Part shown: positions 1 to 36,428 of the stretch, piece after piece
Layout: each line of letters starts with the position of its first letter
Numbering within the stretch: position 1 is the first letter of the stretch
Source: Minisyncoccota bacterium
Lineage (GTDB): Bacteria > Patescibacteriota > Minisyncoccia > Phycocordibacterales > JABAAK01
Length of the DNA: 64,000 nt
NCBI GenBank assembly: GCA_963668425.1
Contig: OY764332.1
Coordinates: forward strand, 259,903-323,902
Direction: 5' to 3'
Program-made: the position numbers and the translations under genes
The notes under the pieces: model-generated
What the model was told of the DNA's origin: nothing
What the model saw: only the letters and a program-made list of their open reading frames with translations
Databases searched by the model: none

Positions 1-972
1 GTGATATCTGACTGGCTACCACAGTCAGCGTGGGTGCTTGATTTCCCCGGTCCGTACAGAGAGTACACACCACCGGAAAGTAATCCCGAGGACTTCGTCG
101 GTCGGGTGTGTATGGAGGTTCCACGTGGTAATGACGACTGGGCTAACGTGGACTACATAGCACCAGTGTCTCTTGCCGTTGTGACCATAACACATGGCCC
201 AAGAAAAGGAGAACAAGTAACTACCGACGAAGGTGGCTACTTCCACTTTCCAAATGTAAAAGGAGACAAGATGTACCTCCGGGTACAGCGGGCATACCTT
301 GAACCAAAAGAGGTTATAGTACACCGCAATAAACCTACCGAACTTCAGCAACTAAGACCGAACGAGGTCTTTGACGCTGAGCATCAAAATCGAGAACGAC
401 CACAAAACGCCCCGGGTATAATTCTAGTAGGGATACGGTGGCCAGATGCAGTCCGCTCCATCCTAGAATCTGAGCCACTCCCGCATGATCTGTTGCTTAC
501 AATAGGTCCTGCGTTCTTTTATGATGATGATAGCGGGTTAATGACTGCTGGGTATTATATAGGGCATGTGGCTTCGGTCTACTATACATTCCCTGAGGAA
601 GAAGGTCGAATTTATCACCCTACCCTCGTCCACGAGCTCGCCCATGCACGGCAACACGCAGTTGCCATTATGCATGGTGACAATAGTTTGTTTGATTGGG
701 AAAAAACCCCTGAGGGTAAAGAGTACCAGGCGGCGTTGGAGAAAGATTTGGCAGAGATTCCGTACAAACACTGGATTGGCACGCTTGATAAGAACGAATA
801 CCTTGGATCAAGCATGCTTGAAAACGCCGCTGAGCTTTACGTTATGTACTGGTATTTTGGGATCGAAGAATTCCTAGGAGGTTCTGAGACACCTGGAGAC
901 GGCGGCATACGAGCAAGAGCCCCCAACCGCTTTAAATGGTGCCAAAAGTATATTAGAGCAAGGCACAACTGA
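1..972 (+). CDS. Zinc metallopeptidase paralog (HExxH motif VHELAHARQH; carboxypeptidase-regulatory-like beta domain), 5' end cut by the window edge
   Basis: The ORF runs from the window start. About 85-90% aa identity to residues about 216-534 of the 7564..9168 peptidase. HELAH zinc-binding motif present. Confidence 0.6.
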   Translation: MISDWLPQSAWVLDFPGPYREYTPPESNPEDFVGRVCMEVPRGNDDWANVDYIAPVSLAVVTITHGPRKGEQVTTDEGGYFHFPNVKGDKMYLRVQRAYLEPKEVIVHRNKPTELQQLRPNEVFDAEHQNRERPQNAPGIILVGIRWPDAVRSILESEPLPHDLLLTIGPAFFYDDDSGLMTAGYYIGHVASVYYTFPEEEGRIYHPTLVHELAHARQHAVAIMHGDNSLFDWEKTPEGKEYQAALEKDLAEIPYKHWIGTLDKNEYLGSSMLENAAELYVMYWYFGIEEFLGGSETPGDGGIRARAPNRFKWCQKYIRARHN

Positions 973-986
973 CCTTTAGTAAACAA

Positions 987-1021
987 GACGACCAACATTT
1001 TTTGCGTTGGTCGTTTTTTTC
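987..1021 (+). terminator. Rho-independent terminator (gacgaccaac...gttggtcgt plus T-run)
   Basis: GC stem-loop followed by 7 T residues, immediately after the peptidase stop codon. Confidence 0.6.
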
Positions 1022-1519
1022 ATCTATACAAACCAGTACACCACCACCAAAGATACACTCAAAACAAAAGGAAGTCATTTTCAATGTATAAGGGGTACAA
1101 AAGAGAGTACGGTTTAGTTGTGGTACCAAGTCATGGAGACAGACATATTCCGATCGGAACAATGCGCGCTATTGTGAGACAATCCGACATTCCGAGAGAA
1201 CAATGGGAAAAATGATTTTCTTTGTGTGTACTGTGAATCACTATTCATACTAGATTATCTGCAATGCAAAACACTATTTGTGCTACTCACGAAGCGGAGA
1301 AAAATGGTAGAAATATGTACAGCAAATTAAGTCCTTTTTTTAAGAATAAGGTGGAGTACTGTAATGTTTTTCCGACTGCAGATAGGTGACTTATTCAGTA
1401 TTTTCCGCATAATTTGGTATGGTATGTACATACTACCTGTTGCTTTTTTAAGAATACGGGTGCTGCTTATTATCCACTAGAATTATGGACAAAGTATCAG
1501 CAGCGTGGGTATACTGTGA

Positions 1520-1771
1520 TTGTGTATGCAAAACGAGATAGATAAAAATTATGAGGCATTTCTGAAGGAATTGCCTGAATTGCTGAAAGATAAAAACAAT
1601 CTTAATAAGTTTTCTCTTTGGCATGATGGTAGCATGGTTGGTATTTTTGACACGGAGTCGGATGCTATTAACATTGGAAAGGAAAAGTATAAGGAGTTTG
1701 GAAATTTTTCTATTCAGCAAATAACAAATAATGATGGGCTTGATCTTGGTTTTATCTCCTTATGTCAGTAA
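1520..1771 (+). CDS. Hypothetical small protein (83 aa), overlaps the start of the downstream aspartic protease gene
   Basis: ORF only. The 10-bp overlap with the next gene suggests translational coupling. No recognizable motif. Confidence 0.3.
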   Translation: MCMQNEIDKNYEAFLKELPELLKDKNNLNKFSLWHDGSMVGIFDTESDAINIGKEKYKEFGNFSIQQITNNDGLDLGFISLCQ

Positions 1772-2148
1772 TATCTTCAGATTTTCGTATCCCGCATGAC
1801 AATAGACCTCATTTACATGTTGATGTTTTGTATGGTGAGAAACACATTACTGTGGTTGCCTTGATTGACACAGGAGCACAGAATTGTTGTATTTCAAATG
1901 AAAAAGCGGCAGAGTTAGGTCTTCCTGTGTTAGGAAAGACAGTCATGCAAGGATCCGCAGGAGAGACACCAACAAATATCTATAAAATTGATTCTATTGT
2001 GTTACCAAACGGGTTTGTTTATAGGAAGGCTGGTATTGTTGGTTATACGAAATGTGCTGCTACTGCTGACATTATCTTAGGGATGGATTTGTTAGGATTG
2101 GGATTCTTCTCTGTTTCTTTTGACGGAACGATGATTATTGCGCTATAA
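1762..2148 (+). CDS. Retropepsin-like (clan AA) aspartic protease, 128 aa
   Basis: Catalytic motif hhhALIDTGAQ (VVALIDTGAQNCCIS) and a C-terminal IILGMDLL motif typical of dimeric retropepsin-type proteases. Confidence 0.6.
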   Translation: MSVISSDFRIPHDNRPHLHVDVLYGEKHITVVALIDTGAQNCCISNEKAAELGLPVLGKTVMQGSAGETPTNIYKIDSIVLPNGFVYRKAGIVGYTKCAATADIILGMDLLGLGFFSVSFDGTMIIAL

Positions 2149-2187
2149 GGTATTCCTATTTTCTAAGGAATATTGGATGAATTCGCA

Positions 2188-2292
2188 GAAGGTGAAATTT
2201 ATTACCCTGTCCTCGTCCACGAGCTCGCCCATGCACGGCAACACGCAGTTGCCATTATGTATGGTGGTAATAATTTGGACACTATTACTTAA
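2188..2292 (+). pseudogene. About 100-bp fragment of the zinc metallopeptidase gene (HELAHARQHAVAIM region)
   Basis: Matches 625..700 and the reverse complement of 7860..7930 at the DNA level. Translates to YYPVLVHELAHARQHAVAIMYGG followed by a stop. No start codon or upstream coding sequence. Confidence 0.55.
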
Positions 2293-2304
2293 AACATAGG
2301 AGGT

Positions 2305-5300
2305 TTAGTGCCTTTTGTGACTACACCCACCACTTGAGTGGTTGTGTCCGGTACTGCCATAACATGATCCTGACTTCACTCCATCATGCCAATGACAACA
2401 AGAAGAAGGAGAAGAAGATCTACAACTACCACCTGAACAACCGTTAGAGCAGCTTGACGTACTCCATGCCTTTACACATGAGCCACTTCGTGTTGTACAG
2501 TAACACCGTTTAGTGCCGCCGTTATGACACCATGGTGATTGTGAACCGCAACCGCACTCATTGCCGCTACACGAAACAGATCCTCCCCCCGTAGAACACC
2601 CCGAAGTAGTACAAGAGCGAGAAGAAGGTCCTGAAGGAGGAACCACCACAGGAAGCACCGTTACAGGAGCGACTCTGGGTACCTGCGGTAGAGCTGTCAG
2701 AGGTGCTGGAAGTACAACTACAGGAACTCCAACTTCCGTAGGTTCCGTCGACACGGGTGCAAGAAGGTTTACAACTACCATTAGAGCAACCGTTAGGGCA
2801 GTTTGACGTACTCCATGCCTTTACACATGAACCACTTCGTATTCTACAGTAACACTGTTTCGTTTGAGTGCTGGTATTACACCATGGTGATGTGTTACCG
2901 CAACCGCACTCATTGCCGCTACACGAAACAGATCCTCCCCCCGTAGAACACCCCGAAGTAGTACAAGAGCGAGAAGAAGGTCCTGAACAGGAACCACCAC
3001 AGGAAGCACCGTTACAGGAGCGACTCTGGGTACCTGCGGTAGAGCTGTCAGAGGTGCTGGAAGTACAACTACAGGAACTCCAACTTCCGTAGGTTCCGTC
3101 GACACGGGTGCAAGAAGGTTTACAACTACCATTAGAGCAACCGTTAGGGCAGTTTGACGTACTCCATGCCTTTACACATGAACCACTTCGTATTCTACAG
3201 TAACACTGTTTCGTTTGAGTGCTGGTATTACACCATGGTGATGTGTTACCGCAACCGCACTCATTGCCGCTACACGAAACAGATCCTCCCCCCGTAGAAC
3301 ACCCCGAAGTAGTACAAGAGCGAGAAGAAGGTCCTGAACAGGAACCACCACAGGAAGCACCGTTACAGGAGCGACTCTGGGTACCTGCGGTAGAGCTGTC
3401 AGAGGTGCTGGAAGTACAACTACAGGAACTCCAACTTCCGTAGGTTCCGTCGACACGGGTGCAAGAAGGTTTACAACTGCCAGAAGTACACGTCTGTCCG
3501 CTGGGGCATTTGGTGCCGGCGGGGCAGGATTTTTTGCTTCCAGAGCAGTTAATCTCGGAGCAATCTGCCTTTTCTCCTTTTTTGCAGGTAGCAGAAATAG
3601 GAGAATTACAGGAAACAGAGGAAGGACTCGGGCAAGTCCAGGAAGGAGTACGGTATTGACATAATGCAGAGCAAGAATTACTCTTCTTTGTCCAAGAGCC
3701 GTTGTCGCAGGTGTAGGAACAAGAGCCGTTAGAAACGGAACAAGATCCTACTGATTGACCATGACTGGCTGTAGGTAATGAACAATTTGACACTTTTCCC
3801 CCTTGACAAGATGTACGACTGCAACCGCCATTCCGAGACCAAGAGCCGTTGTTGCATGAATATTGACAGGCACCACTATAGCCATCGGCACACGCCAACC
3901 ATTGTGTAGTATTACCATGTTCGACTGCAGGCAAGGGGCAACCTGACACTGTTTTTGCGGGGCAAGATTTTTTTGAGGTTGCGCCAAAACAAGAATTACT
4001 GTTCTTTTTCCAAAGGCCGTTATTATTGCAGGTGTAGGAACAAGAGCCAGTGGAGACACAAGAACCTGCTGATTGACCATATTTGGTTACCGGCAATGCA
4101 CAACCTGTTATTGTTTTGCCCCCGCAAGATGTTTTTACTGAGGATAAACAAGAATTATTGATCTTTATCCAAGAACCGTTATTGCATCTGTAGTTACAAA
4201 AATATACAGGAGCCACAGAAGATTTCTCAATACAACTTCCAGTTTTGCCGTCACCATGTTGTGCTACCCCTAAAGTGCAATTTGACAGTATCTTGGGAGC
4301 ACAGGATGATTGTGCTTTTGAGTCGCAGTGGTACCGTGAGAATTCACATTCTTGACCAGCAGGACAGTGAGAATGTGTGGTACATTCCTTACATAGTACT
4401 CGATTAAGTATGGTCCTATAACATCCGAGGGCACAAGTTTCAACATCTCTTGACTTAACAACAGTACCATTTTTTTTGCAGTTCTGACGGATGTTTCCAT
4501 TATTAGCACAAAAACGACCACCCCAATTTGAGCAAGAAGCGGGACTAGATTTACACGTACCACTTGAACTTGCACAACCGTTAGAGCAGTTTGTCGTAGT
4601 AAACGCCTTTACACACGTATTGTTTTTTTCAACGCAACTACACGATAACGAATTATTACCCTGACAGAATGGTTGTTTTGGTCCACAGTTGCAGTCATTT
4701 TTTCCATCACGGCAATGACGCTCTGGTTTTTTTTCACACTTACCACCCTTACAAGTACCCTCGGAACACTTCGTACCCGTCACGCTTGGTGGAGGACCAC
4801 TACACTGCACGGGGTTACAGTTACTATCTTGTCCAGTGTTACAAGAGGCATAACCTGTCTTACCGCAGTCAATGGAAGATTTTGAAGGGGTGCTCCAAGA
4901 GGCAGGTTTAGAAGGGCAGATTTTGTTTTTTGTACAATCCTTCGTACCCGTCACGCTTGGTGGAGGACCACTACACTGCACGGGGTTACAGTTACTATCT
5001 TGTCCAGTGTTACAAGAGGCATAACCTGTCTTACCGCAGTCAATGGAAGATTTTGAAGGGAGAATCCAAGAGGCAAGTTTAGAAGGGCAGATTTTCTCTT
5101 TTGTACAATCCTTCGTACCCGTCACACTTGGTGAAGAACCACTACACTGCACGGTGTTACAGTTACTATCTTGTCCAGTGTTACAAGAGGCACTACGTGT
5201 CTTACCGCAGTCAATGGAAGATGCCGAAGGGGTGCTCCAATAGGCAGCTCTAGGAGGACAGGATCTACTTGTACAATCTTTCGTACCCGTCACACTTGGT

Positions 5301-7216
5301 GAAGAACCACTACACTGCACGGTGTTACAGTTACTATCTTGTCCAGTGTTACAAGAGGCACTACGTGTCTTACCGCAGTCAATGGAAGATGCCGAAGGTA
5401 GAGCACTCCAAGAGGCAGATCTGGGAGAACAGGATCTACTTCCACAACCCTTCGTACCCGTTACGCTTGGTGAAGAACCACTGCACTGCACGGTGTTACA
5501 GTTACTATCTTGTCCAGTGTTACAAGAGGCACTACGTGTCTTACCGCAGTCAATGGAAGATGCCGAAGGTAGAGCACTCCAAGAGGCAGATCTAGGAGAA
5601 CAGGATCTACTTCCACAACCCTTCGTACCCGTTACGCTTGGCGAAGAACCACCACACTGCACGGTGTTACCACAGCTATCAACACCAGGAATGCAAGATG
5701 CACTCTTAGTAACACCACAGGCAACAGTAGATGCTGCAGGAAGGTCAGTCCAGGAAGGAGTGCGGGGAGTGGTGTTGCAGGCAGGAGTAACAACACAACG
5801 ATCGCCAGAGCATTTTCCACTTGCACACTTCGTACCCGTTACCGTTGGTGAAGAACCACTACACGACAAACCACCACATGAAGGACTTGGGTCATTGCAA
5901 GTTGCCGTCTCTGTAGTACCACAGGCAATGGAAGACGCCGAAGGTAGAGCACTCCACCCTCCATTCACAGGAGAGCAACCTCCCGTAACACAACTCCCCC
6001 CAGAGCATGTTTGCCCTGCGGCGCACGCTGTACCAGTACCAGTACAGGTTCTAGTAGGTCCAGCACCACTACACCCTATAGCAGAACAGGTAGTAGTTAC
6101 TCCAATACGGCAGTTGTCAGAGGCGGTGTTAGGTATAGCAGTACCACAGGCAACAGAAGAAGCACTTGCACAGTCCGGAGCAGGATACCAAGAAGCAGCA
6201 CGGTAGGTACAGGTTAGACTCGGTACAACACTTACGCTACGATACGCAGACCAAGCAGTGCAGGAATGTTTGCCCTGCGGCGCACGCTGTACCTTGTTCT
6301 TGCGCCTGAGACAAACATAGTAGGTACTACCGTTGGTGAGACCACCATAGGACTTGGATCGGGTTGTTTGTGTAGCGTAGGAGCCACCAGCACAGGTACT
6401 GGAGGTGGTAATCTTTGCTTGGTAGTCGTATAAAGCGATGTTGGTGAAACCAAAGTTGGTGGAACCAAAGTCAGCAATCGCTCCAGTGTTTTGTGGGCGT
6501 GTGGAAAAAAGCGATGGCTGTGGTGCAGTAGTGCAGGAGGTAACACAACTCCCCCCAGAGCATGTTTGCCCTGCGGCACATGAGAGGTACTGCGTCTTTT
6601 TGATGACAGATCCTACTCTGCAATAACGAACACGTCTGTTGTTGTCACTGCAAGTGTAGGCATCGTCCCACGTGCAGGGTATGCACCTCTGCTCTGCCTT
6701 GTTACAGAAAGTGGCACCAGAGCAGTGGCTGTCTTGCGTACACTGCACACATCTGCCGATAGCAGTATTACAAGCCGGAGTTGGTACAGCACAGTCACTG
6801 TCACGTTTACAAGGACTGCCAACACACTTAAGCCCCAAAGTGGTCAAAGCAGCAAACTCACCCACACTACAGCAGTCAGCACAGTCGGTGATATAGGTGC
6901 TTGCTCTGTTGGTAAGCGGAAAGCACGAAAGCCCTGTTGGAGTAATCTTTAGAAACTCCCCAGAATTACAGCACTCAGATGGGGTGTCACATTCATTACT
7001 CCATGTGTCAGTCGGTGCGGCGCAGACGATACCTTGGTGGGTGAGTGTGGCATACTCGTCAGTAGCACAGGTTGTCACCACATCAAGAGGGCTTTGACGA
7101 GTGGTCGGCGAGCGTGCCTCTACCGCCACACTTCCGACGAGTAAAGCATGAATAACCATCGCAATAAGCAACGCCGACAGTAGCACAAACCTAGTAGAAA
7201 AAATAAACAAAGGCAT
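2305..7216 (-). CDS. Giant secreted Cys-rich repeat protein (about 1630 aa if continuous) with thrombospondin-type-1-like (TSP1) repeats. An apparent +1 frameshift near 2625-2640 splits it into ORFs 2567..7216 and 2305..2781
   Basis: N-terminal signal peptide (MPLFIFSTRFVLLSALLIAMVIHALLVGSVAVEA). Repeated W-S-x-W-S...C...C-G-x-x-x-x-R/S-x-C modules, for example SWSSCSCTSSTSDSSTAGTQSRSCNGASCGGSCSGPSSRSC. The C-terminal repeat copy differs from the upstream copies by one inserted base, and the sequence continues in the 2305..2781 frame. Confidence 0.7.
2440..3490. repeat. Three tandem 351-bp intragenic repeats inside the giant gene
   Basis: Shadow ORFs 2821..3132 and 3172..3456 are identical. 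The DNA period is 351 bp. Confidence 0.85.
4775..5900. repeat. Six to seven tandem intragenic repeats of about 160-175 bp encoding a repeated 55-57-aa Cys module
   Basis: The motif cttcgtacccgt(c/t)acgcttggtg(g/a)ag recurs at 4775, 4931, 5101, 5279, 5451, 5626 and 5826. Confidence 0.8.
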
Positions 7217-7311
7217 ACTGTGTTTATTGTACTACTGCAAAAATATAAAGAAAGAGATAATGCACATACTGTTCTTTGAGTAAGCAATCTCTATGAAGAA
7301 TGGCTCACCTT

Positions 7312-8523
7312 ACACACAAAGAAAATCATTTTTCCCATTGTTCTCTCGGAATGCCGGATTGTCTCACAATAGCGCGCATTGTTCCGACCAGAATATGTCT
7401 GTCTCCATGACTTGGCACCACAACTAAACCGAACTCTCTTTTGTACCCCTTATACATTGAAAATGACTTCCTCTTGTTTTGAGTGTATCTTTGGTGGTGG
7501 TGTACTGGTTTGTATATATGAAAAAAACGACCAACGTGGTTTGTTGGTCGTTTTTGGTAAGGTTCAGTTGTACTTTACTTTAAGATACTTTTGGCACCAT
7601 TTGTAACGGTTTGGAGCTCTTGCTCGTATGCCGCCGTCTCTGGTTGCTTCATGGACTCCCAGGTTTCCTTCCCTCTCAACATCCCAGTAATAAACGTGAA
7701 ACTCAGCGGCGTTTTCAAGCATGTCTGATTCAGTGTGTTCGCTCTTGTCAAGCGTACCGATCCAGTGTTTGTGCGGAATCTCTGCCAAGTCCTTCTCCCA
7801 CGCCGCCTGGTACTCTTTACCCTCAGGGGTTTTTTCCCAATCAAACAAACTATTGTCACCATGCATAATGGCAACTGCGTGTTGCCGTGCATGGGCGAGC
7901 TCGTGGATGAGGACAGGGTGATAAATTTCACCTTCTTCCTCAGGGAATGCATAGTAGACCCCAACCTCATGCGATCCATAAGTCCCAAAAGTCATTCCTT
8001 CCCCATGATCAACGAACGCAGGACCTATTACAAGAAACAGATCATGCGGGAGTGGCTCAGATTCTAGGATGGAGCGGACTGCATCTGGCCACCGTAGCCC
8101 TACTAGAATCATACCCGGGGCGTTTTGTGGTTGTTCTCGATTTTGATACTCAGCGTCAAAGACCTCGTTCGGTCTTAGTTGCTGAAGTTCGGTAGGACGA
8201 GAGCGATAGGCGATTACCTCTTTTGGTTCAAGGTATGCCCGCTGTACCCGGAGGTACATTTTGTCTCCTTTTACATTTGGAAAGTGGAAGTAGCCACCTT
8301 CGTCGGTAGTTACTTGTTCTTCTTTTCTTGGACCATGTGTTATGGTCACAAGAGCGTTCTGCACTGGTGCTATGTAGTCCCCGCCAACCCATTCGTCATT
8401 ACTAGCATCTGGAACCTTCATACACACCCGACCGACAAAGTCCTCGGGATTACTCTCTGGTGGTGCGTACTCTCTGTACGGACCGGGGAAATCAAGCACC
8501 CACGCTGACTGTGGCAGCCAGTC
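7312..8523. repeat. Right arm of the about 1.2-kb inverted repeat (partner 1..1229)
   Basis: See the left arm. Confidence 0.8.
7521..7558 (-). terminator. Rho-independent terminator downstream of the peptidase gene (minus strand)
   Basis: Hairpin cgaccaac...gttggtcg followed by a T-run on the minus strand. Counterpart of the 987..1021 terminator. Confidence 0.6.
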
Positions 8524-9168
8524 AGATGCCACAGTGCCGTTATAGTATCCGTGGGTGATCGGCTCTTCTACTAGACCTGGTAGCCCTATCGTATCGGACT
8601 GTGTTACCTGCAGTTTCTTTGGGTGATGGTAAAACTTTGTGAGCGTGTTACCATCAAGGTCTGCTGATAATTTGCCGACCATGATGGACACCGCTTTGTC
8701 TGGCATTACGTACCTACAAATGTAGTCGTCTGTGCCAGAACCTAATGGCTTTGCATAGCCATGGATCAATTTTTCTTTGGGCGAGGTAACCTTGAAGCGT
8801 TCCATCGGGCTACCTCTTTCTTTGTACCAAAGCACCGGTCTACCGCTACCCTCGCCTGTAACAATATGCTCCATTGGCTCAGAGAAAACGATCTTAATAA
8901 AAACTGTTTCTCCTGCTTCAGCCGATTGTATCTCCTTGGTGAGTTTCCAGTCACTGTAGTAGCCGACTGATATTACCCTCGGAGTACCTATCGCCACGTT
9001 CATTGGAGCACTTGGAGCGTTTTCTGGAGTTCTTAGAGAGCCCAGCAAACCAAGTGTTTCATTATCGTCCAATACCAGTCCGTCTGGCTCCTCACCACAA
9101 CCCATGAGCAGAGCAATGGTTAGCACTGCAATTGCAATGTTCGCCACATGTTTCAATACATGTTTCAA
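7564..9168 (-). CDS. Lipoprotein zinc metallopeptidase (HExxH) with a carboxypeptidase-regulatory-like domain, 534 aa
   Basis: Lipobox signal (ALLMGCGEE). HELAHARQH motif. Beta-sandwich TITHGPRKEEQVTTDEGGYFHFPNVKGDKMY resembles the CarboxypepD_reg-like fold. Confidence 0.7.
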   Translation of the reverse strand: MKHVLKHVANIAIAVLTIALLMGCGEEPDGLVLDDNETLGLLGSLRTPENAPSAPMNVAIGTPRVISVGYYSDWKLTKEIQSAEAGETVFIKIVFSEPMEHIVTGEGSGRPVLWYKERGSPMERFKVTSPKEKLIHGYAKPLGSGTDDYICRYVMPDKAVSIMVGKLSADLDGNTLTKFYHHPKKLQVTQSDTIGLPGLVEEPITHGYYNGTVASDWLPQSAWVLDFPGPYREYAPPESNPEDFVGRVCMKVPDASNDEWVGGDYIAPVQNALVTITHGPRKEEQVTTDEGGYFHFPNVKGDKMYLRVQRAYLEPKEVIAYRSRPTELQQLRPNEVFDAEYQNREQPQNAPGMILVGLRWPDAVRSILESEPLPHDLFLVIGPAFVDHGEGMTFGTYGSHEVGVYYAFPEEEGEIYHPVLIHELAHARQHAVAIMHGDNSLFDWEKTPEGKEYQAAWEKDLAEIPHKHWIGTLDKSEHTESDMLENAAEFHVYYWDVEREGNLGVHEATRDGGIRARAPNRYKWCQKYLKVKYN

Positions 9169-9506
9169 TTCTGTATCCTCCTTTTTTTACTGTGAAAGGT
9201 CTGTATTCAACGCCTCAAATCCTAACTTATACTATACAACAATATTACTCTCTCGTCAAATATCTTTTCAGGCATTTTTCAATACCTGATCTAGTAACTA
9301 GTATACTGCATTTCATACTATCTATGTCCTTTTTGTCAACATCCATAGTGTATATCTATTAACCTTACAGCAAAACACTTTACATGTACTATGAAAATAA
9401 ACATCGTAAAAAACCCTTATCTTAAAAGGCATTTGAGCATTTTCCTCTTTATTTTCATATAGCACCTTTGAAAATATAATTTTCTTGTTCTTGCTAGGAC
9501 TTATTC

Positions 9507-9728
9507 CTATCCTTGCACTAATGCATACCCACTACATGAGGAACCTCCATAATCAGGAGAAGGGTTGGTGCAGGTAACGGTCTGTGTAGTACCACAGGCA
9601 ACAGAGGAATCCGAAGGAAGAGATTTCCAGGAAGCAGAAGAAGTAGAACAGGTGCGGGTGTTTGTGCAAGGGGTAGAACAACTCCCCCTGAGCAAACACC
9701 AGCAGAACAGTAGGTGCCAGTACCACAA
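9507..9728 (-). pseudogene. Isolated fragment of a TSP1-like Cys-rich repeat module (remnant of a giant-protein paralog)
   Basis: Translation SWKSLPSDSSVACGTTQTVTCTNPSPDYGGSSCSG matches the repeat modules of 2305..7216 and 37564..40293. It has no signal peptide and no flanking coding sequence. Confidence 0.5.
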
Positions 9729-9970: not shown

Positions 9971-10693
9971 TCATGATATTATACGCAGTATTTCTTCGCT
10001 ATCACTATACACTTTAGTGTACATCTTTTTTATATAGTCATCAACATTTTGTACATTAAACTCAAACTTCTCCTGCATCGCTTCGTTTCCTTCAGAAACT
10101 GTCTTCAAGACAAAATGAATCTTGATTTTTTCTTCAAATGTATTTTTAATTTCATTCACCACCTCCCGAGAACCGATAAACTGCCTGGCAAATGATTCCT
10201 TTGGTACTACTCTTCCTTCCACTTGTTCTCGTTTTTTTACAAATTTCCACGCACTCTTCGGTTCTTGATACACAAAAAACACTTCCACCCGGCACCCTCT
10301 TTTTAAAGATCGTTCTACATTACTTCTCGCTTTCTTAAAATTTGAAAATGTTGAATCTAACACAAAGTTATACCCCTTCTTGAAAATATGATCCAAGACC
10401 TTTTCCACTCCCAAGGATGCCGCTCCGTGATATTTCTCCGCATTATTCCCCGAGTATCCAGGTAACAACGACTTAATCACATCTTGGTCAATGTGAACAA
10501 AGGAGGTGTCAGAAATCTCTTCTATCAGACGTCTCGCTGTCTCAGTCTTTCCTGCACCTGGAGAACCAGACATAAACAACGCATTCTTTGTTTTCACTGA
10601 CTCACAATCCTTGCATACTTCTTCTATAATCTGATGAGCATTCTTTTTGACCCAATCCTTCAACGATTCTTCTGCTTGTTCCATGCTATCCAT
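9971..10693 (-). CDS. Zeta-toxin-like P-loop kinase (zeta toxin / AAA_33 superfamily). The true start is likely the Met at 10693; the 10786 start overlaps a peptidase-gene remnant
   Basis: Walker A motif FMSGSPGAGKTE near the N-terminus. Size and layout typical of zeta/PezT-type UNAG kinases. No epsilon-like antitoxin ORF nearby. Confidence 0.6.
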   Translation of the reverse strand: MDSMEQAEESLKDWVKKNAHQIIEEVCKDCESVKTKNALFMSGSPGAGKTETARRLIEEISDTSFVHIDQDVIKSLLPGYSGNNAEKYHGAASLGVEKVLDHIFKKGYNFVLDSTFSNFKKARSNVERSLKRGCRVEVFFVYQEPKSAWKFVKKREQVEGRVVPKESFARQFIGSREVVNEIKNTFEEKIKIHFVLKTVSEGNEAMQEKFEFNVQNVDDYIKKMYTKVYSDSEEILRIIS

Positions 10694-10803
10694 TATCCCA
10701 TACTCCTTATAACTCTCATACCATCTCGTGATCTGAATCAAACATGCTTGAAAACGCGGCTGAGTTTTGTGCCATGCATTGGACATTACAATGGAAAAAT
10801 AGT

Positions 10804-10930
10804 GCGCAAGGAATTTGTAAAAATACCCTTATTTCATAGGATATTTTGTCAAAATTCATTCCTTGTATATTGTAATTGACAAGGAATGCTACTTACTTGT
10901 ATATCGTAATATACAAGGAATTATTTTAGG
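10804..10930. promoter_or_regulatory. Conserved divergent promoter/operator cassette with the palindrome TTCCTTGTATA-N-TGACAAGGAA; copy 1, between the zeta-like kinase gene and Fic-1
   Basis: An about 130-bp stretch near-identical to 20677..20838. It contains the inverted repeat ttccttgtatattgtaattgacaaggaa plus a degenerate second copy. Confidence 0.55.
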
Positions 10931-11006
10931 TAAGGATATATTGCACTTTACAAAAAACAGATTTACGGCATTGTTTTAGTTTATATTGCGAGTTTTTGCC
11001 TAACAT

Positions 11007-11037: not shown

Positions 11038-12177
11038 GTGGGAGAACGCATATTTGCGTTTTTGGACATAATTGGATATAATTGGACATATATACCTATA
11101 TCCATATGTATGCAAGAAGATAGATTTATTAAACGAATCCCCATCACTTCTGAGATTATGCAAAAAATCTCTCGCATTGATGCTTTTAAGGGTTTTTGGG
11201 AGGGTGGACTGCGTTTGCATCCACGTGTTTTGACACAGCTGAAGAAGTGGGTTATCATCACCTCAACAGGTGCATCAACGCGTATTGAGGGGTCAAAAAT
11301 GAGCGATGCAGACGTTACAATGTTTCTACGTGGTTTACGTGTAAAGTCACCAAAAAATAGGGATGAGCAAGAGGTTGCGGGGTATGCTGACCTTGCCGCA
11401 AGAGTATTTGACAACTATACAATATTACAACTGACAGAAGGATATATTTTGCAGTTTCATAAGATTTTATTGCAGTTCTCAAAAAAAGATCAAAAGCATT
11501 TTGGGAAGTATAAAGCATCAGACAACATTGTCATTGCCCGCACTGATGATGGTGAGGAGAAGGTTCTTTTCAGACCAACTCAACCATACTTAGTAAAAAA
11601 AGAGATGGATGATGTGCTTGAGTGGACACGATCAACGCTTGCATCTGAAACACTGCACCCTATTCTTGTTATCTGTAACTTCATTTTTGAATTTCTTGCG
11701 ATTCACCCGTTTGTAGACGGTAATGGACGACTTTCTCGTATTTTAACAAATATGCTCCTGTTGCAGGCAGGATATGCTTATGTACCGTATGTTTCTTTAG
11801 AAGAAATTATTGAAAATCATCAGGTAGCATACTATAGGTCACTACGGGAAACACAAGTCAAGCATAAAACAGGGCATGAAGATATCGCTCCGTGGGTACA
11901 CTTTATGCTTGATATACTACTTGAACAATCTGAAAAAGCACAATCTGTTATGCAATCCGAGCATCCGGAGAAAATGCTATCAGAAAGCCAAACGACTATA
12001 TATACTCTGTTCACCGCCGACGAAGAGCTTGCCATTGCTGATATTGCTATGAAACTTCGTGATACTATTCCTCGGACAACTATAAAGCAAGCTGTGTTCC
12101 GCCTTATGCGACTTAATTTGTTGGAGCGAATCGGGAGCGGGAGAGGGACGCGATACCGTCGTATTATTCAACCATAG
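11038..12177 (+). CDS. Fic family protein (AMPylation-type Fic motif HPFVDGNGRLSR) with a C-terminal winged-helix region
   Basis: Canonical HPFx[DE]GNGR motif. N-terminal IEGS region as in the Fic_N domain. GTG start at 11038. A homologous ATG at 11024 is followed by a stop after 4 codons. Confidence 0.8.
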   Translation: MGERIFAFLDIIGYNWTYIPISICMQEDRFIKRIPITSEIMQKISRIDAFKGFWEGGLRLHPRVLTQLKKWVIITSTGASTRIEGSKMSDADVTMFLRGLRVKSPKNRDEQEVAGYADLAARVFDNYTILQLTEGYILQFHKILLQFSKKDQKHFGKYKASDNIVIARTDDGEEKVLFRPTQPYLVKKEMDDVLEWTRSTLASETLHPILVICNFIFEFLAIHPFVDGNGRLSRILTNMLLLQAGYAYVPYVSLEEIIENHQVAYYRSLRETQVKHKTGHEDIAPWVHFMLDILLEQSEKAQSVMQSEHPEKMLSESQTTIYTLFTADEELAIADIAMKLRDTIPRTTIKQAVFRLMRLNLLERIGSGRGTRYRRIIQP

Positions 12178-12384: not shown

Positions 12385-13875
12385 TTACTCAGACACTATC
12401 ACTACCCCCCTTGCCTGCGGGTTGATGTGGTCGTGGTACTGCCACTCCCCTACTTCGTTAAACCGAAACGCATACACCGCACCGGTACCCATTGCCTCAC
12501 AAGCATCAAAAATCATCGCTCGTTCATCGGTGGCACATTTCATGATATTTGATCCGGGATACTGCTTGTGTGTTGGGTGAAGATTTGCTGCAGGCCAGAA
12601 CACCTGATCTTCGTTCCTCCACATTACCACCTGCCCGGGTTGTATAGACACTGTGTTTGGTTGGAACTGTCTCTCCCGATACGTAATAACCTCCGCATCA
12701 GACCCGATAGTGTCAGGAATCATGCCTCCTCTGGGAAATGCAAAAGACACTGCGCTATCTTTTGTTGACATCTCATCATGCGTATGCTCGGTTTCATCAT
12801 GGTGCTCACCACCTTCCTCCGCACCTCCAAACAAACCAGCAAAGAACGATTTGATGCCATCAAGCAATTTCTGCAACCATGATCTTGAGACATCATGTTT
12901 CTCATCTACCATTACCTCCTCAGACAGTGCCTTGACAGCGCTGTGATGATGCTCAATGCCGGAGCGTGCGTTGCGCACTGATTGCCGACACACTTCCTCA
13001 TACACCCCTGCACCGACACACTTATCAGCAATAGGAAACGACTCGTCGCCAAATCGATGTAATAGATACTTTCCATGGTTTTTGTAGCATTTCTCACGGT
13101 ACTGCTCCTCTATTGTGTTGCACGGAGCAGATGCATCATCGTCAATGAAGCCATCACCGCCACCAGACGCAATATACTCATTCACATTCTCCATAAACAC
13201 ACCATCCCAACAATGCGATTGAAACTCCGGGGGTAATGCGTCGCACACCGCAAGCGCAGGAGCGAGTACGTGGTTGTTGCGTTTCATAAACATATGCCCC
13301 ATTTGGTGGTAGCATGCCTCTTGCTCGGCAACATCGGCATCTGTGGTAGTGACACAAATGGTTTCCGCGAAAAAATTATCTGGCTCAACACCATCAGCAG
13401 TTGAGGAGAATGCCTCAAAGAAGCCATATGCACATCCGTAGTCAAAATCATTCCCACACAACCCAAACTGGTTCTCTCTGTCTGCAAGCAGTTGCTCTCC
13501 AAGCACACGCCCTATTCTCTGAGCGAGTGCATATGCATCAACATCAAATGCTTGCACAGACACCAAGTCAGCCAATACTGCCTTTGCAAACTTTGGACCA
13601 GATCCCGCTATCGCCGCATCAACAATATCTTCCATGCATTCCTCTACCACACCACCTTCGCAAAGAGCAAGATAGCATGCCTCCTGCTCACCCGATGAGA
13701 TCACATGACAAATATTTACCTCAGATGGCAAGTTGTCATGTTTTTCATCACCATGCGCAAACACCACATTTACAGAAGAGAGCATGCCAAGCAAAAAGAG
13801 AAGAAAGGCAGTGATAACAATAGTACGTGTTGCCATGTTAGTAGCAGTATATAGTAATACAGCATTCATACACAA
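12385..13875 (-). CDS. Secreted Cys/His-rich modular protein (one M module, a His/acidic linker, and a cupredoxin-like C-terminal domain), 496 aa
   Basis: Signal peptide (MATRTIVITAFLLFLLGMLSSVNVVFAHG). The M module (ACYLALCEGG...FGLCGNDFDYGCAYGFFEAF...CYHQMGHMF...GVFMENV...PCN) is shared with the two downstream genes. The C-terminal V-x-W-x-NED...HPTH...YHDH...GVVIV follows cupredoxin spacing. Confidence 0.6.
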   Translation of the reverse strand: MCMNAVLLYTATNMATRTIVITAFLLFLLGMLSSVNVVFAHGDEKHDNLPSEVNICHVISSGEQEACYLALCEGGVVEECMEDIVDAAIAGSGPKFAKAVLADLVSVQAFDVDAYALAQRIGRVLGEQLLADRENQFGLCGNDFDYGCAYGFFEAFSSTADGVEPDNFFAETICVTTTDADVAEQEACYHQMGHMFMKRNNHVLAPALAVCDALPPEFQSHCWDGVFMENVNEYIASGGGDGFIDDDASAPCNTIEEQYREKCYKNHGKYLLHRFGDESFPIADKCVGAGVYEEVCRQSVRNARSGIEHHHSAVKALSEEVMVDEKHDVSRSWLQKLLDGIKSFFAGLFGGAEEGGEHHDETEHTHDEMSTKDSAVSFAFPRGGMIPDTIGSDAEVITYRERQFQPNTVSIQPGQVVMWRNEDQVFWPAANLHPTHKQYPGSNIMKCATDERAMIFDACEAMGTGAVYAFRFNEVGEWQYHDHINPQARGVVIVSE

Positions 13876-13931
13876 ATATTATACAGAACATTTCCTTCCT
13901 ATACCCATCTATCCATAACTCCTTCTGCACT

Positions 13932-15179
13932 TTATTCAGAAACTACCACCACACCGGTCGCCCGTGGGTTGCTATGGTCGTGATAGCGCCACCGCCCAGG
14001 TTCAGTAAAGACAAATGAATACTCAGTGCCATAGGGTAACTCTTTGCATGCATCAAAAATACTTTCCTGTTCTGCTGTCCCACATTTTTTAATATCTGAC
14101 CCAGGATATGCTGCATGAGTTGGGTGGATGTTGGATGCTGGCCAAAACGACTCTTCAGTGTCTTCATTCACCCACGTTACTTCTTGCCCGACTGCTATGT
14201 GTATAACATCTGGCATATACTCCCCTCCTTGGTAGCGTATCACTGCGTTTTCAGTCTTCTGAACGGTAGAGTAAGGTGTCTGTGTAGTACCGACATCCGT
14301 AACAGATAACGAAACAGCTTTTGGTGTTTTGCGTTCCATACATTCTGACTGATATCGATCTGGTAATGTCCGGCAGAAATCAGGTAACCCATCTGTTGAG
14401 ATAACCTCTGTCGCCTGTGTCATAAGACGATCATAACAAATTTCTTCAAAAGAAGAATCCGAAGACAGCGCGCAAAATGCGACCGCGCCCGTCTCCTGTG
14501 ATGGATCCCAAAATAAATTATTCAATGCCCCCTCCAAACACCCATTTCTACCGGGTACATACGCTATACGCATACACACCTTCCTACTTTGCACTGGATC
14601 CAGCAGCATCTGACCGGACACCGTCCGCCCCATGCTATGAAAACAAGCAAACCGAAAATGCTCCGGTGCATCAGCACACGCGATACCAACTGCATCAAAA
14701 TCACCGAGCAATCGGTGCATATGATCGGTTTGTAGCCAATAACACTCATGCTTATACTTCTCCTTTACTGCATTACACGGATAGTGTGGGTCATCATTTA
14801 GATACTGCGTATAGTGGACACCACCTTCTGCTTGCTCATCTTGCACGATACCACCGACAACATTCTCCATGAACACGCCGGAATAACAGGATTTCTGATG
14901 ATACTGTTGACGAATTAAATCACACGCCTCCAGCGCATCATATATCTTATAGTCATACCACGCCATCAGCCCATGTCCAATACCGTGAATACACTGGTGC
15001 ATATGAAACCTATTCCCTGCCTCATCACCACAGAGTGTATGCAAACTGTCAATTAAGTCAGTAGTGCCATTTGCCGCAAAAAATGCCTCAGTTGCTCCGT
15101 GTCGGCATCCAGAGTGACACTCTATCCCACAACTCTTAAACGACTCACCACCGAACAAATCATACGCCCGCCGACCCAT
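13932..15179 (-). CDS. Secreted Cys/His-rich modular protein, paralog (M module plus cupredoxin-like domain). It probably starts at about 15349 with a frame disruption near 15180-15250
   Basis: Same M-module motifs (CIHGIGHG, GVFMENV, PCN) and the same C-terminal domain (TWVNEDTEESFWPASNIHPTH...RYHDHSNPRATGVVVVSE). The ORF 15122..15349 encodes a signal-peptide-like N-terminus (MGKDVRFAVFVLAIFCGAMA) in another frame. Confidence 0.55.
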   Translation of the reverse strand: MGRRAYDLFGGESFKSCGIECHSGCRHGATEAFFAANGTTDLIDSLHTLCGDEAGNRFHMHQCIHGIGHGLMAWYDYKIYDALEACDLIRQQYHQKSCYSGVFMENVVGGIVQDEQAEGGVHYTQYLNDDPHYPCNAVKEKYKHECYWLQTDHMHRLLGDFDAVGIACADAPEHFRFACFHSMGRTVSGQMLLDPVQSRKVCMRIAYVPGRNGCLEGALNNLFWDPSQETGAVAFCALSSDSSFEEICYDRLMTQATEVISTDGLPDFCRTLPDRYQSECMERKTPKAVSLSVTDVGTTQTPYSTVQKTENAVIRYQGGEYMPDVIHIAVGQEVTWVNEDTEESFWPASNIHPTHAAYPGSDIKKCGTAEQESIFDACKELPYGTEYSFVFTEPGRWRYHDHSNPRATGVVVVSE

Positions 15180-15437
15180 CTCATGCGCTCTGTTGTGGCA
15201 ATCAATCCCCTTTGAGTATTCAAGTCAGGGGTTAGTGCTGTAGTCGGCTTCTCCTGCCACCCGTCAAAACTAAACATTGCCATAGCACCACAGAATATAG
15301 CCAACACAAAAACAGCAAAACGGACATCTTTACCCATGTGGAGCAACATACTTCACCCCAAACAGCATTACTGCCTTAGATTTGACTTATCTGCATACAG
15401 ACATCTTGATACATCCCTTTTGGTATTTGACACCTAT

Positions 15438-18400
15438 CTATTTTTTAAACATGTTGATCAGGTATCTCACTACCCTGCTGAACAGATTGAGATGATCTTC
15501 ATACTCTTCCTCATTGATACGATTCACCTCATCGGTGCTTGCAGTCCATTCAGCCACAAACGTAACACTTTCTTCACCATTATGATATGGATGCAAGCAA
15601 TCATTATAATATATCTCCGGCACCTGATTGCAAAATTTGTACAGATCTGTCTCATCTTTCACCTTACCCCCGACATTCCTCCCGATGACCTTCCAGCATC
15701 TACTCCTATATCTTTCGTTCAATTTTCCGCAAAATTCCTTTGTGTTCTCTATCCCATAATAAGTAAAATTCTGATCAATTGCCGGTTCGTAGCATCGCAT
15801 ATGATATTCTTCGCTAAATTGATTACAAATGAAAATGGTTTTGTCTATGAGGTTTCCTGAAATACTGTCATCCAACAACACATCCTGGGTACTTGCATAG
15901 ATAGACTGTGCGCCAAGGTTATATACACAGTCCTGCACATAGCCGTCTTCAACCTTGTTGCACATATCAATCATTTTTTTTAAATCCCATTGTAGTGCAT
16001 ACAACCAATACGATACTTGAGATTGATAGCAGAGTGTTTTATACCGCTCATTAAGATTGTTACATGGAGCAAAAGGGTCTTCAGTGCGAAACCCATTATC
16101 AATTTCATCATTTGTTTTCCTGCCTTGTGCACCACTTACATTTTCCATAAATACTCCACTATAGCAATCCCATTTTCGATGCTCCCTCTCCAACAAATCA
16201 CACTGTTCTAATGGCTTATACAGTCCATAACTGTAATTCATTACCAATGCGTGACCTGATCCGTGATAGCATGCAGTTTTTGCATATGGTGGAGTGTCCG
16301 GCATATTACTACAGGTATTTTCTATGAACTCGGCGGGGCTAGGAACAACAGCAAGACCGGCTTCAAAAAATCCATGATGGCAACCGTAGTCAAAATCAAT
16401 TGGACACTTGAGAAATGCTTCTCCGGTTAACCCAAATTTCTCTCCTGTTGATCTTCCTATAGTGTGTGTTATTTGATGTGCAGATGACGGCTCAAACAAA
16501 AACTCTCCCTCCCATGTCATGTCATGTAGTGCCCTGATGGACTCTTTCGGACCTGATCCAAAAACTAGTTGGGTAACAATTTCTTCTGCACAGAGATATC
16601 CTGGCTCATATTCACACAACGATGCGTAGCAACCTGCTCTCCCCACATCCAAAGCTGCACACTCCTGCGCACTATCAAATAAATTTTTGTTAAACTTTTC
16701 TTCCTGCAGGTGTTGCTGCCAATCCTGTGCAGATGCCGGTAAAGTAACTGCGCTTACCGCACTCTTAACTGCATCTAAAATACTTTGTGTGATTTTTTTA
16801 AATAAAGAAACCAGGTTTCTCTCCTTCTCTATTTTTGTTACTGGTAATTCTCCATATACATCTTCACCATGCTGAATATCTGCACTTACGTTATTATCAA
16901 GTCGATATCCAAACAAACATTCATTTCTATACTCATCCGGCACATCTACACACTTTTCTGTTTTCTCCTCTTCATGCACAACCATATCCTGTAACCTTCT
17001 ACCCATCTCTCGATAACAATTTCGTTCATACTTTTTATCAATTTTTACACAAAACTCAGATGTTTTTTTTGCTCCGTAGAATATGAAGGTTTGATTTATT
17101 GCCCAGAGATAACATGTCTCACGGTACTTTTCTGGAAAATGATTGCATAGATATATTGTTTTATCTATAAAGTTTCCTTCTATGTGTGGCATCAGTTTTT
17201 CTTGAATCTCTTTATACATCCCATACCCTCCAACGCCATGTGCACATGATTCTGCCTCTTCACCGGCGTCTAGACATGTATCAACGACACCTTGAATATC
17301 ATAGTCAAAATACCATGCTAAATATGGCAAATGTGTTTCATAACATACATCTCGATATCCGTACCCCTCTCCATCCTCCACCAATGTGTCGCATGGAGCG
17401 TGTGGATTATTTTCATCAAAACTGTTATTTTCTGTATATATCTCTTGTATCCTTCCTGATACAAAAGCGTCTACGTTTTCCATGGTCACGCCGGAGAAAC
17501 ATGTAAATGGCTGTGGTAACGCCTTGCAAATATCCAGTGCCTCATAGAGATCATAGCTTGTGTTCATGAGTATGCCGTGACCAGCACCATGATAACAATT
17601 CACCTTATCAAGTGACGGCTGATCGGGCAAGGTTTCACATATCTGTTTTACTGCCTCAGCAGGTGATTGTGCCTCTACAAGCGCAACCTCAAGAAACCCA
17701 TGGTGGCAACCTGAATCAAATGATGTTGGACATCTCAGAAATGCTTCTCCTGAACCATTGAACCTTTTTGCTGTTTTTCTCCCAACAACATGTGCAAGTC
17801 CATGCCCCTCATCTGCCGAAGAGAATGAAAAGGGGGTTGATGGTATAATTTCTCTGAGTATCTGCATACCTAACTCCGGACCATTGTGTTCAACTGCTGT
17901 TTCTACTATTTTCTCTGCACACAAATATCCAGGTTCATATTCACACAGAGAAGCGTAGCATTCCGCACGACCATCCTGCTGGTTGATGCACCGCTCAATT
18001 GCGAAAAAACTGGTATCAGGTGCATCAACAGAATCCTTGACACTTTGTGCAGAAACAGGTCCAGCAAATAGAGCGGAGAGGTTTCTGAAAAGGGTAACAA
18101 AAAAATCTTTAACCTTTATGAGTAAGTAGTCATTCTGATCAACATCATCTGCCATCGCCTTATTTACAGCAGTGGTGGCACTTTCCTCAAAATCTGAAAT
18201 AACAACCTCAGCATGCCTTGTATACGGATCTAAACAATCCTGCTGATATATGGTAGGGATCTCGGCACATGCTGACTGTTTCACCTCCTCACTCCCTAAA
18301 TGATTTAAATATGAGCCGGCTTGTTTGAAACATGCTGCTCTGTGTCTCATTTCAATGCTACCACAAAACGTGCTAACTCGATGCATGGAGGGGTAATCAA

Positions 18401-19494: not shown

Positions 19495-19553
19495 TGGCAC
19501 CTGTTTTCATTGACCTGAACTATAAGCTGGATTCTGTACTCGCTTTACGTGGG
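19495..19553 (-). repeat. Partial duplicate of the RNase P RNA 3' end plus terminator flank (about 60 nt); left direct repeat of a 3.0-kb islet
   Basis: tggcacctgttttcattgacctgaactataagctggattctgtactcgctttacgtggg is about 92% identical to 22495..22554, exactly 3000 bp away. Confidence 0.65.
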
Positions 19554-19766
19554 CAGAGACGTACCTCAACAAACAGTACGACTGATCTTTAACTCTTACA
19601 TAAAACGATCAACAGCATGTTGGTCGTTTTATTTTGCTACATAGCGCCTTGCAAATAAAGCGTAAAATACCCCGTAGAACAAGAGTTACTGATTGCAGCG
19701 TGAATAACTTATTGACAAAAGTAAAGATCTTGGGATACACTATTCTTATGAAAGAGGTTCCGGGCC

Positions 19767-20483: not shown

Positions 20484-20676
20484 TCATTATACTTTGCTCG
20501 TTTTTTTGTGACACGCACTAGTATACCTCCTGAAACTTAATACTTTTTGTTTGAACAGTAGGAGTGCGTTATTCCGAAAGATTGCCATATTATACCCGCT
20601 TTTTGTCAAAAAAGCGGGTACAAAATTTGTAATACATAAAAAAACGGGTATACCATGTGTACTGTAGAAGACAAAT

Positions 20677-20838
20677 GCGCAAGGAATTTGTAAAAAACTC
20701 CTTATTTTATAAGATATTTTACCAAAATTTATTCCTTGTATACTGTAATTGACAAGGAATGCTATTTCCTTGTATATTGCAACTGACAAGGAATACTACT
20801 TCCTTGTATAGTGCAATTGACAAGGAATTATTTTAGGC
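20677..20838. promoter_or_regulatory. Divergent promoter/operator cassette, copy 2 (three TTCCTTGTATA-N-TGACAAGGAA palindromes), between the DUF3800 gene and Fic-2
   Basis: Near-identical to 10804..10930 but with an expanded palindrome array at about 20732, 20766 and 20800. Confidence 0.55.
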
Positions 20839-20888
20839 AGAGATCTATTATACTTTACAAAAAGTAGATATGTTGTATTATCTTGGTT

Positions 20889-36377: not shown

Positions 36378-36428
36378 GTTGCTTGGTAACGGGGTATACT
36401 ACTGATACACTAATGTTGTGGTGTGTGG

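Follow-up and report, generated by a model that had tools for sequence, protein, structure and literature searches.

A giant cysteine-rich gene between inverted lipoprotein genes: a probable recombination scar in the surface-protein region of an uncultured sponge symbiont

How does a gene for a giant cysteine-rich protein come to lie between two inverted copies of what may be a peptidase gene? The question is raised by a stretch of 64,000 nucleotides (nt) of contig OY764332.1 (assembly GCA_963668425.1, Minisyncoccota bacterium, positions 259,903 to 323,902 of the forward strand), referred to here in its whole length as the window. Near its left end, two lipoprotein genes with an HExxH motif, pepA and pepB, run in opposite directions on the two sides of giant gene 1, and their 3' parts and downstream DNA form a long inverted repeat. 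The explanation that we favour, with a probability of about 0.7, is that this bracket is a recombination scar in a fast-changing surface-protein region.

The repeat aligns window positions 6-1249 of the forward strand with 8527-7292 of the reverse strand over 1,247 nt at 88.0% identity (BLASTN, expectation value (E)=0), far beyond chance for two inverted copies of at least 1 kb. A gapped alignment gives 88.2% over 1,256 columns, and a self-repeat search resolves the repeat into four collinear inverted pairs (1-138/8395-8532, 128-526/8004-8402, 525-995/7541-8011 and 1005-1249/7292-7536). The original prediction had placed the copies at 1..1229(+) and 7312..8523(-), correctly recognising the repeat but drawing its inner ends about 20 nt short of 1249/7292; its estimates of about 88% coding identity and of a 6.1-kb enclosed segment agree with the measured values of ~87-90% and 6,042 nt (1250-7291). 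Past the inner ends, weakening homology continues for about 50 nt, to ~1300/7240. Identity per 100-column bin ranges from 75% to 98% across the coding part of the arms, with divergent patches at ~100-200, ~500-600 and ~800-1000, and the tail 1000-1249 is 93-95% identical between the arms. Altogether about 150 positions and several indels distinguish the arms, which encode different intact proteins. Uninterrupted identical tracts of 108, 61, 60 and 48 nt reach the tens of nt needed for RecA pairing, although the overall divergence of 12% would still lower recombination.

The arms had first been described as the duplicated 3' half of one gene. Instead, they are the common C-terminal module of two complete, oppositely oriented paralogous genes with different N-terminal halves, of which the window start cuts one, pepA. 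The full deposited pepA protein, P0003, has 393 amino acids (aa), and the product of the pepB open reading frame (ORF) is identical to the deposited P0001 (527 aa, start at 9147); the two are deposited as separate proteins of one 696,550-bp contig. In a BLASTP comparison they are homologous from P55 of P0003 and P190 of P0001 (PGLVEEP; PGLVEEPITHGYYNG) to the C-terminus (340 aa, 79%), with no homology upstream of these residues, and the left edge of the arm homology coincides with a domain boundary of the peptidase family. Since the homology starts there, the repeat runs about 48 nt beyond window position 1. The shared module consists of a C-terminal beta-sandwich and HExxH domain, a terminator hairpin and a dead hicA fragment. 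In addition, pepB has an N-terminal beta-sandwich domain (structural model with a predicted local distance difference test score (pLDDT) of 80), and the N-terminus of pepA has its homologue in the short form of the related contig L004. Short forms of ~390-430 aa and long forms of ~520-590 aa are both widespread in the family. A profile scan of genome contigs with the family alignment found members, all of at most 58% identity, only in metagenome-assembled genomes (MAGs) titled Candidatus Poribacteria and in two 'uncultured bacterium' MAGs, and a scan of metagenome contigs with the same alignment found one 3-kb contig.

Judged from the motif alone, a signal peptide that ends in a lipobox cysteine, both products are predicted bacterial lipoproteins (LLMGC|GEE in pepB and VIGC|DEG in pepA), and G16 and C17 hardly vary across the family. 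H415, E416, H419 and E478 are invariant in 26 family sequences and likewise in the domain alignment, the invariant Glu (ENAAE) sitting 62 residues past HExxH in 26 members. The catalytic part matched no Pfam catalytic model, no NCBIfam entry and no PDB sequence, and Pfam searches with the family proteins gave a sub-threshold CarboxypepD_reg match only. Its structural model (pLDDT 78) has the zincins of M61, the M9 collagenases and anthrax lethal factor as top Foldseek neighbours, all of them weak fold matches (E>0.1, template modelling score (TM)<=0.41). Because profile and PDB sequence matches are absent and all fold neighbours have E>0.1, the earlier label of Zn-metallopeptidase is plausible rather than established, and the activity putative.

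Each tail begins with a hairpin behind the stop codon, a 9-bp stem followed by a T-run, with identical stems and different loops in the two arms. A promoter and terminator scanner missed both hairpins on the sense strand, and direct folding confirmed them. The stem ACGACCAAC/GTTGGTCGT, or compensatory variants of it, lies behind family genes in about 10 other loci (L005, L007, L019, L020, L025, L008, L027, L004, L018 and L006), 17-26 nt past the stop where measured. The hairpin is the family's own terminator and travels with the gene. The stem is kept behind family members of merely 30-60% protein identity, which is unusually strong for an intrinsic terminator; a TCTTTA motif also often follows directly on the stop codon of family genes.

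Beyond the hairpin, each tail holds the relic of a hicA toxin gene. Its 43-aa ORF matches HicA_toxin with E=1.8e-4, improving after frame correction to E=1.3e-7 and 32 bits (cut-off 27); the match is not full-length in one frame, as profile positions 18-58 of 58 are present over two frames. Four of the five substitutions between the arms inside this ORF are non-synonymous (hand count of the alignment). The tail had been called non-coding and nearly identical, which agrees with its identity and with the presence of the terminator but leaves out this frameshifted gene. As truncation and frameshift are the same in both arms, the unit was copied after hicA had decayed. Compared with the relative L025, tail B is chimeric at the hairpin: one side corresponds to the 3' end of the L025 peptidase gene, and the other to the L025 hicA relic and spacer.

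The divergence of the arms is low at synonymous sites and patchy overall. Between pepA and pepB the synonymous divergence (dS) is 0.142, the non-synonymous divergence (dN) 0.132 and dN/dS 0.93; among 40-codon patches, some have dN well above dS, which may reflect diversifying selection, and others are without synonymous change. The mismatches are clustered (index of dispersion 4.3), and the longest perfect run, 108 nt at 629-736, compares with a permutation mean of 41 and was reached in 0 of 5,000 permutations. In a tree of the C-module, pepA and pepB are sisters despite their different N-terminal architectures; short and long forms are intermingled, and further sister pairs occur within single genomes (P0004/P0006, P0009/P0012 and P0016/P0019). 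Between pepB and the L025 peptidase gene dS is 0.66 overall, 2.2 in the N-domain and 0.36 in the C-module, with flanks that are 88-95% identical. The peptidase gene thus behaves as a hypervariable cassette between conserved flanks. Along the C-module, the identity of the L025 gene to either arm varies from 33% to 93% per 60-nt bin, and the sites at which it follows one arm, A or B, form clusters (29 runs in 100 sites, runs test, p=0.0003). This pattern is consistent with repeated segmental exchange among alleles or paralogues, to which patchy selection may contribute. For timing, the dS of ~0.14 between pepA and pepB can be set against that of the first 381 codons of the giant gene between window and L025 (dS=0.146, dN=0.039).

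Searching the family profile against all six reading frames of the window returned pepB, pepA and three relics, i.e. five family copies or relics within 20 kb, where the original prediction had two remnants. The third copy, expected at 2188..2292, was found at 2185-2277; it directly adjoins the end of the giant gene (2305) only when that gene is read across a frameshift at ~2637, the intact giant-gene ORF stopping at 2567. These 91 nt are directly followed by a conserved 40-nt spacer, and ~360 nt, the 3' third of the gene with its hairpin, are gone. The deletion junction has a microhomology of 9-11 nt, AATA[G/A]TTTG in the gene and AATAATTTG past the terminator. The fourth relic, proposed for 10735..10790, was recovered at 10735-10806 (E=3.9e-5), and since it is nearer to the family consensus than to pepA or pepB, it derives from yet another paralogue. 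The fifth, at 19538-19582, had been missed.

Related genomes arrange the same parts differently. The order in L025 is an intact HTH_3/Peptidase_M78 gene (+), an upstream region (U), a long-form peptidase gene (+), the hairpin and the 40-nt spacer, then a giant-gene homologue (-), its upstream spacer, a hicA relic, a second hairpin, another giant gene (-) and ribonuclease P (RNase P). Here the long-form gene is convergent on the giant-gene homologue; it and U are opposite to their window counterparts both in orientation and in the side of the giant gene on which they lie, since in the window pepB is on the far side and runs in the same direction as the giant gene. The end of the M78 gene and U, which are neighbours in L025, are separated by 8 kb in the window and inverted with respect to each other. 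Window positions 5985-7555 correspond to L025 in a 1,572-nt block (93%) that covers the 5' end of the giant gene, the spacer and tail B. The contig L027, whose peptidase P0013 is 44% identical to pepB, represents the same chromosomal site as the window, its RNase P RNA gene, DUF192/SelR block, ABC-F and TopA genes being collinear with window 22.5-26.2 kb, and its single long-form gene converges on its single giant gene at a distance of 45 nt. In L004, 95 nt separate the stop of a single short-form gene from that of a giant-gene homologue whose N-terminal 224 aa are 73% identical; the 10 kb of contig downstream contain no second peptidase copy, and in L023 a family gene is likewise convergent on a giant-gene homologue. 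In L025 and L027 the giant gene stands at the same chromosomal site beside the RNase P RNA gene, without the bracket. The window layout thus appears from these comparisons to be the derived state. Repeated rearrangement around the locus, which had been suggested from the scattered fragments, is borne out by the fragments being true family relics and by the layouts of L025, L027 and L004.

Other occurrences are less informative. A protein search with the giant-gene N-terminus found three relatives only, in the low-coverage contigs L022-L024 with fragmented genes; for L022 and L024 the match is confined to the N-terminal domain of the long form, giving loose support for a peptidase-giant linkage. 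Family genes in L019 and L020 lie in an unrelated neighbourhood without synteny to the window, and the one copy in L026 lacks a partner within 10 kb. A metagenome-contig scan with the giant-gene N-terminus gave no match, and literature searches brought up no relevant work that connects Poribacteria with thrombospondin or inverted repeats.

L025 itself has several local peculiarities. Its positions 11591-11890 and 16830-17129 form a 100% direct repeat of at least 300 nt, 5,239 nt apart, comprising hairpin, 40-nt spacer and the 3' end of a giant gene; this probably reaches ~12446/17685, and would have arisen very recently by duplication or conversion, or else by faulty assembly. A tandem duplication of the final 31 nt of the peptidase gene (11510-11570) gives it a C-tail KVHNLVPKAF compared with KVKYN in pepB. 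An element of 63-70 nt is present in two tandem copies 5' of the peptidase gene (L025 9650-9789), is absent at the matching place in the window, and occurs once elsewhere in the window (20590-20652, 94-95%); this could be a small intergenic element, mobile or repeated. Paths from the L025 layout to that of the window through one or two inversions at hairpins were considered and rejected, as none also explains the relic at 2185-2277.

The bracketed segment is dominated by giant gene 1, whose features are listed with those of the arms in Table 1. Its intact ORF is interrupted at ~2636-2637, in the last 351-nt repeat, where TCCT replaces the TGT of two upstream repeats; this destroys a Cys codon and puts the C-terminal 88 aa into another frame (ORF 2305-2781(-)), and could be a pseudogenising lesion or a sequencing error. 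The former description of its repeats as TSP1 repeats has no counterpart in Pfam: TSP_1 does not match even at E<=10, and at that threshold neither the full protein nor its individual repeat units match any Pfam family, leaving a resemblance in the WSxWSxC...C motif only. The promoter and terminator scan gave no convincing promoter for the giant gene. Of the supposed pair of retropepsin-like genes at the other end of the segment, one is an Asp_protease_2 ORF (1762-2148), and its partner (1520-1771) has no Pfam hit of its own and is 37% identical to a DUF5678 protein in L025. Together they stand where L025 has U and the 5' two-thirds of its peptidase gene.

A second giant gene (37477-40293, +) is also bracketed, by a 459-nt inverted repeat of 96% identity (36492-36938/40644-41101) made of ~200-nt tandem units directly 3' of convergent tRNA-Ser genes (36427-36519(+) and 41074-41165(-)). 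The layout resembles that around giant gene 1, with convergent genes and shared 3' flanks around a giant gene. The two giant genes share blocks of 81-85% nucleotide identity (5985-6540 with 37952-38471, and 2404-2580 with 38788-38973) and, being 30 kb apart on opposite strands, constitute a further long inverted repeat pair.

Table 1. Features of the bracketed locus and its surroundings (positions in the window)
Feature	Position	Strand	Remarks
pepA, short-form lipoprotein HExxH gene	1..972	+	window starts at codon 71; 1-972 is the coding part of arm A
Terminator hairpin, arm A	988..1021	+	stem 988-1014 (ACGACCAAC-loop-GTTGGTCGT), then T7; -16 kcal/mol, z-score (z) -4.6
hicA pseudogene relic, tail A	1022..1216	+	5'-truncated; KGSH motif in one frame, 43-aa remainder in another
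Decayed continuation of the repeat	1250..1300	+	~62% to 7291-7240 (alignment, hand count); junction to next block
Relic of HTH_3/Peptidase_M78 gene, last 34 codons and downstream DNA	1285..1423	+	gene intact in L025; codons at 1285-1386, 91% aa identity to L025
Small ORF (1520-1771) and retropepsin-like Asp_protease_2 ORF (1762-2148)	1520..2148	+	
Third peptidase copy (HELAHARQHAVAIM region)	2185..2277	+	relic of the proposed ancestral convergent gene; E=1.5e-11; 93% to B, 90% to A
Conserved 40-nt spacer, peptidase terminator to giant-gene stop	2269..2308		100% identical to L025 11634-11673
Giant cysteine-rich repeat gene 1	2305..7216	-	intact ORF 2567-7216, 1549 aa; last repeat cut off by frameshift
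Unique spacer 5' of giant gene 1	7217..7291	-	inside bracketed segment; conserved with L025 within the 93% block
hicA pseudogene relic, tail B	7325..7519	-	truncation and frameshift identical to tail A
Terminator hairpin, arm B	7527..7551	-	-16.9 kcal/mol, z -6.3
pepB, long-form lipoprotein HExxH gene	7564..9168	-	7564-8532 is the coding part of arm B
Upstream region of pepB (U)	9222..9541	-	88-93% to U of L025; inverted relative to giant gene
Short relic resembling an internal giant-gene piece	9522..9629		71-73% to 5849-5956
Fourth peptidase relic, ESNMLENAAEFCAMHW (ENAAEFCAMHW)	10735..10806	+	E=3.9e-5
Fifth peptidase relic, last 15 codons (RFTWAETYLNKQYD*), and degenerate family hairpin	19538..19630	+	relic part 19538-19582, E=2e-3

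A recombination scar would bring these features together as follows. The ancestral site would have had one peptidase gene convergent on the giant cysteine-rich gene, with a single terminator hairpin between them, because this layout is seen in L027, L004 and L025, and the relic at 2185-2277 sits at the corresponding position in the window. Around the split from the closest available relative, the C-module would have been copied or converted, in inverted orientation, between pepA and pepB, and would then have diverged in patches with further exchange. In the lineage of the window, the resident copy appears to have been destroyed: its 3' third would have been lost through the microhomology deletion, leaving the 91-nt relic, and its 5' part replaced by the small ORF and the retropepsin-like gene, so that intact peptidase copies now lie on the two outer sides of the giant gene. 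Homologous and illegitimate recombination in and around the cassette, with junctions probably at the hairpin, would thus have produced both the bracket and the relics.

Several points weigh against this explanation. The exact path of events cannot be reconstructed, no path explaining every junction, and the layouts of window and L025 cannot be interconverted by a single inversion between the repeats. Patchy selection, and not gene conversion, could account for part of the clustering of differences between the arms. The contig L025 stems from a long-read metagenome, and its giant-gene frame is broken; given the 100% direct repeat at its second hairpin, its right-hand state is probably derived or possibly misassembled. 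As the hairpin elsewhere always stands behind a family gene, the second L025 hairpin may mark a lost peptidase copy; the bracket would then predate the split from L025, and could have been lost there. Finally, the DNA 5' of pepA lies outside the window.

Among the other explanations, an assembly artefact, in the form of a chimeric or fold-back duplication from assembly or amplification, deserves mention since inverted duplications are a known product of amplification and long-read library preparation. It is excluded by the ~150 differences and several indels between arms that encode different intact proteins, and by the unique flanks of each arm, which correspond to separate parts of a contig obtained independently from another sample; the deposition of P0001 and P0003 as separate proteins of one contig speaks against it as well. 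The bracket could also be old and static, consisting of long-separated paralogues kept similar by purifying selection without recent copying or conversion. The wide occurrence of short and long forms and the position of the homology edge at the family's domain boundary are compatible with such a history, which is nevertheless very unlikely in view of the synonymous divergence of only 0.14 between the arms (0.66 for pepB and its L025 counterpart), the 250-nt tail that is 93-95% identical and bears the same pseudogene lesions on both sides, and the sister position of the arms in the tree. Even less probable is a composite mobile element, in which the arms would be the terminal inverted repeats of a transposon carrying the giant gene: despite the layout of cargo between inverted repeats and the toxin-antitoxin-type genes nearby (hicA relic, zeta toxin and Fic gene), no transposase was found in or near the arms, which consist of peptidase genes, terminator and hicA relic, and the giant gene is found at the same site in L025 and L027 without a bracket.

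The remaining explanations give the repeat a role. In a programmed invertible element for phase or antigenic variation, of the shufflon or hsdS type, a flip of the 6-kb segment would switch the giant gene or shuffle peptidase C-modules. The repeats lie within the coding regions of convergent genes, so that two intact chimeric genes would result from any crossover; most differences between the arms fall in patches with dN/dS>1, so that the chimeras would be new variants; and perfect tracts of 108, 61 and 60 nt are available for pairing. The opposite orientation of the long-form gene relative to the giant gene in L025 would also fit, but the L025 difference is not a simple flip between the arms. 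Moreover, no recombinase or invertase was found by Pfam among 20 ORFs (83-1549 aa) between 1 and 36.4 kb, other small ORFs being unscanned; arms of 1.25 kb with 12% divergence are unlike the short, near-identical sites of known switches; and both peptidase genes are complete with their own starts, without silent cassettes. Inversion would in addition keep the upstream context of the giant gene, since the spacer 7217-7291 is inside the segment and the tails are nearly identical, and would therefore leave expression unchanged. We consider a programmed switch distinctly improbable. The bracket can in principle invert by RecA-type recombination, as a by-product and not as a regulated switch. A related proposal, that it serves as a recombinase-independent module shuffler in which recurrent RecA-type crossovers and conversion from relics generate chimeric C-modules, strikes us as unlikely; if true, the symbiont would vary a host-facing enzyme tied to a giant cysteine-rich protein, and the hairpin would be a preferred exchange point.

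The wider locus has further unusual content. A zeta-toxin gene (9971-10786(-)) and Fic/DOC genes (11038-12177(+) and 21051-22220(+)) lie between pepB and the RNase P RNA gene, where ~15 kb of the window are without an equivalent in either L025 or L027. The two Fic genes have duplicated 5' regions, 80-87% identical (10803-10996 with 20676-20903, and 11058-11192 with 22286-22419). Three adjacent ORFs (12385-13875(-), 13932-15179(-) and 15438-19436(-), of 496, 415 and 1332 aa) have no Pfam hits, and all three (12385-19436) match one 507-aa L027 gene that is oppositely oriented and lies beyond the RNase P RNA gene, which points to local gene-family expansion and another inversion. A predicted tRNA-Ile with anticodon TAT at 59769-59842 represents an uncommon bacterial way to read AUA.

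Read as a recombination scar, the locus is a base-pair-level record of the remodelling of a surface-protein region in an uncultured sponge symbiont. No new mechanism of genome rearrangement is revealed; the scar is an ordinary but well-documented one. Its value for sponge-symbiont biology is that it ties an uncharacterised family of HExxH lipoproteins, probably zinc peptidases, to giant cysteine-rich proteins, to which it is genetically linked in at least four genomes. The family evolves much faster than its surroundings and leaves behind relics and inverted copies. Peptidase and giant adhesin-like protein together are a candidate host-interaction module, and the locus should be useful for strain typing.

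Known systems resemble this locus in part. The predicted enzymes are like gluzincin-type zincins in their invariant HExxH and downstream Glu and in having zincins as top neighbours of the modelled structure, but their catalytic part is without Pfam, NCBIfam or PDB sequence match, and their fold matches are weak. As in pilE/pilS and variable lipoprotein loci, a surface lipoprotein gene outdiverges its flanks, is mosaic and has fragments of paralogues nearby; the fragments in the window, however, are decayed relics of 45-93 nt, too short and damaged for an organised donor archive. The hsdS inversion loci of Type I restriction systems and the R64 shufflon use short repeats, an adjacent dedicated tyrosine or serine recombinase and silent partial genes. 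With these the bracket shares inverted repeats within coding regions, where recombination would swap modules with frames left open, whereas it has no recombinase among the scanned ORFs, its genes are complete and separate units, and its repeats are long and diverged. Enterobacterial pairs of the tufA/tufB type are ~1.2-kb inverted duplicates that undergo RecA-dependent gene conversion and can invert the intervening DNA. Unlike these, the copies in the window are 6 kb apart and 12% rather than ~1% diverged, share only a C-terminal module and 3' flank, and encode proteins that diverge fast (dN/dS ~0.9) rather than staying identical; like them, they are two paralogous genes of ~1.2 kb in inverted orientation with signs of exchange in their mosaic identity and sister relationship, between which inversion is possible in principle.

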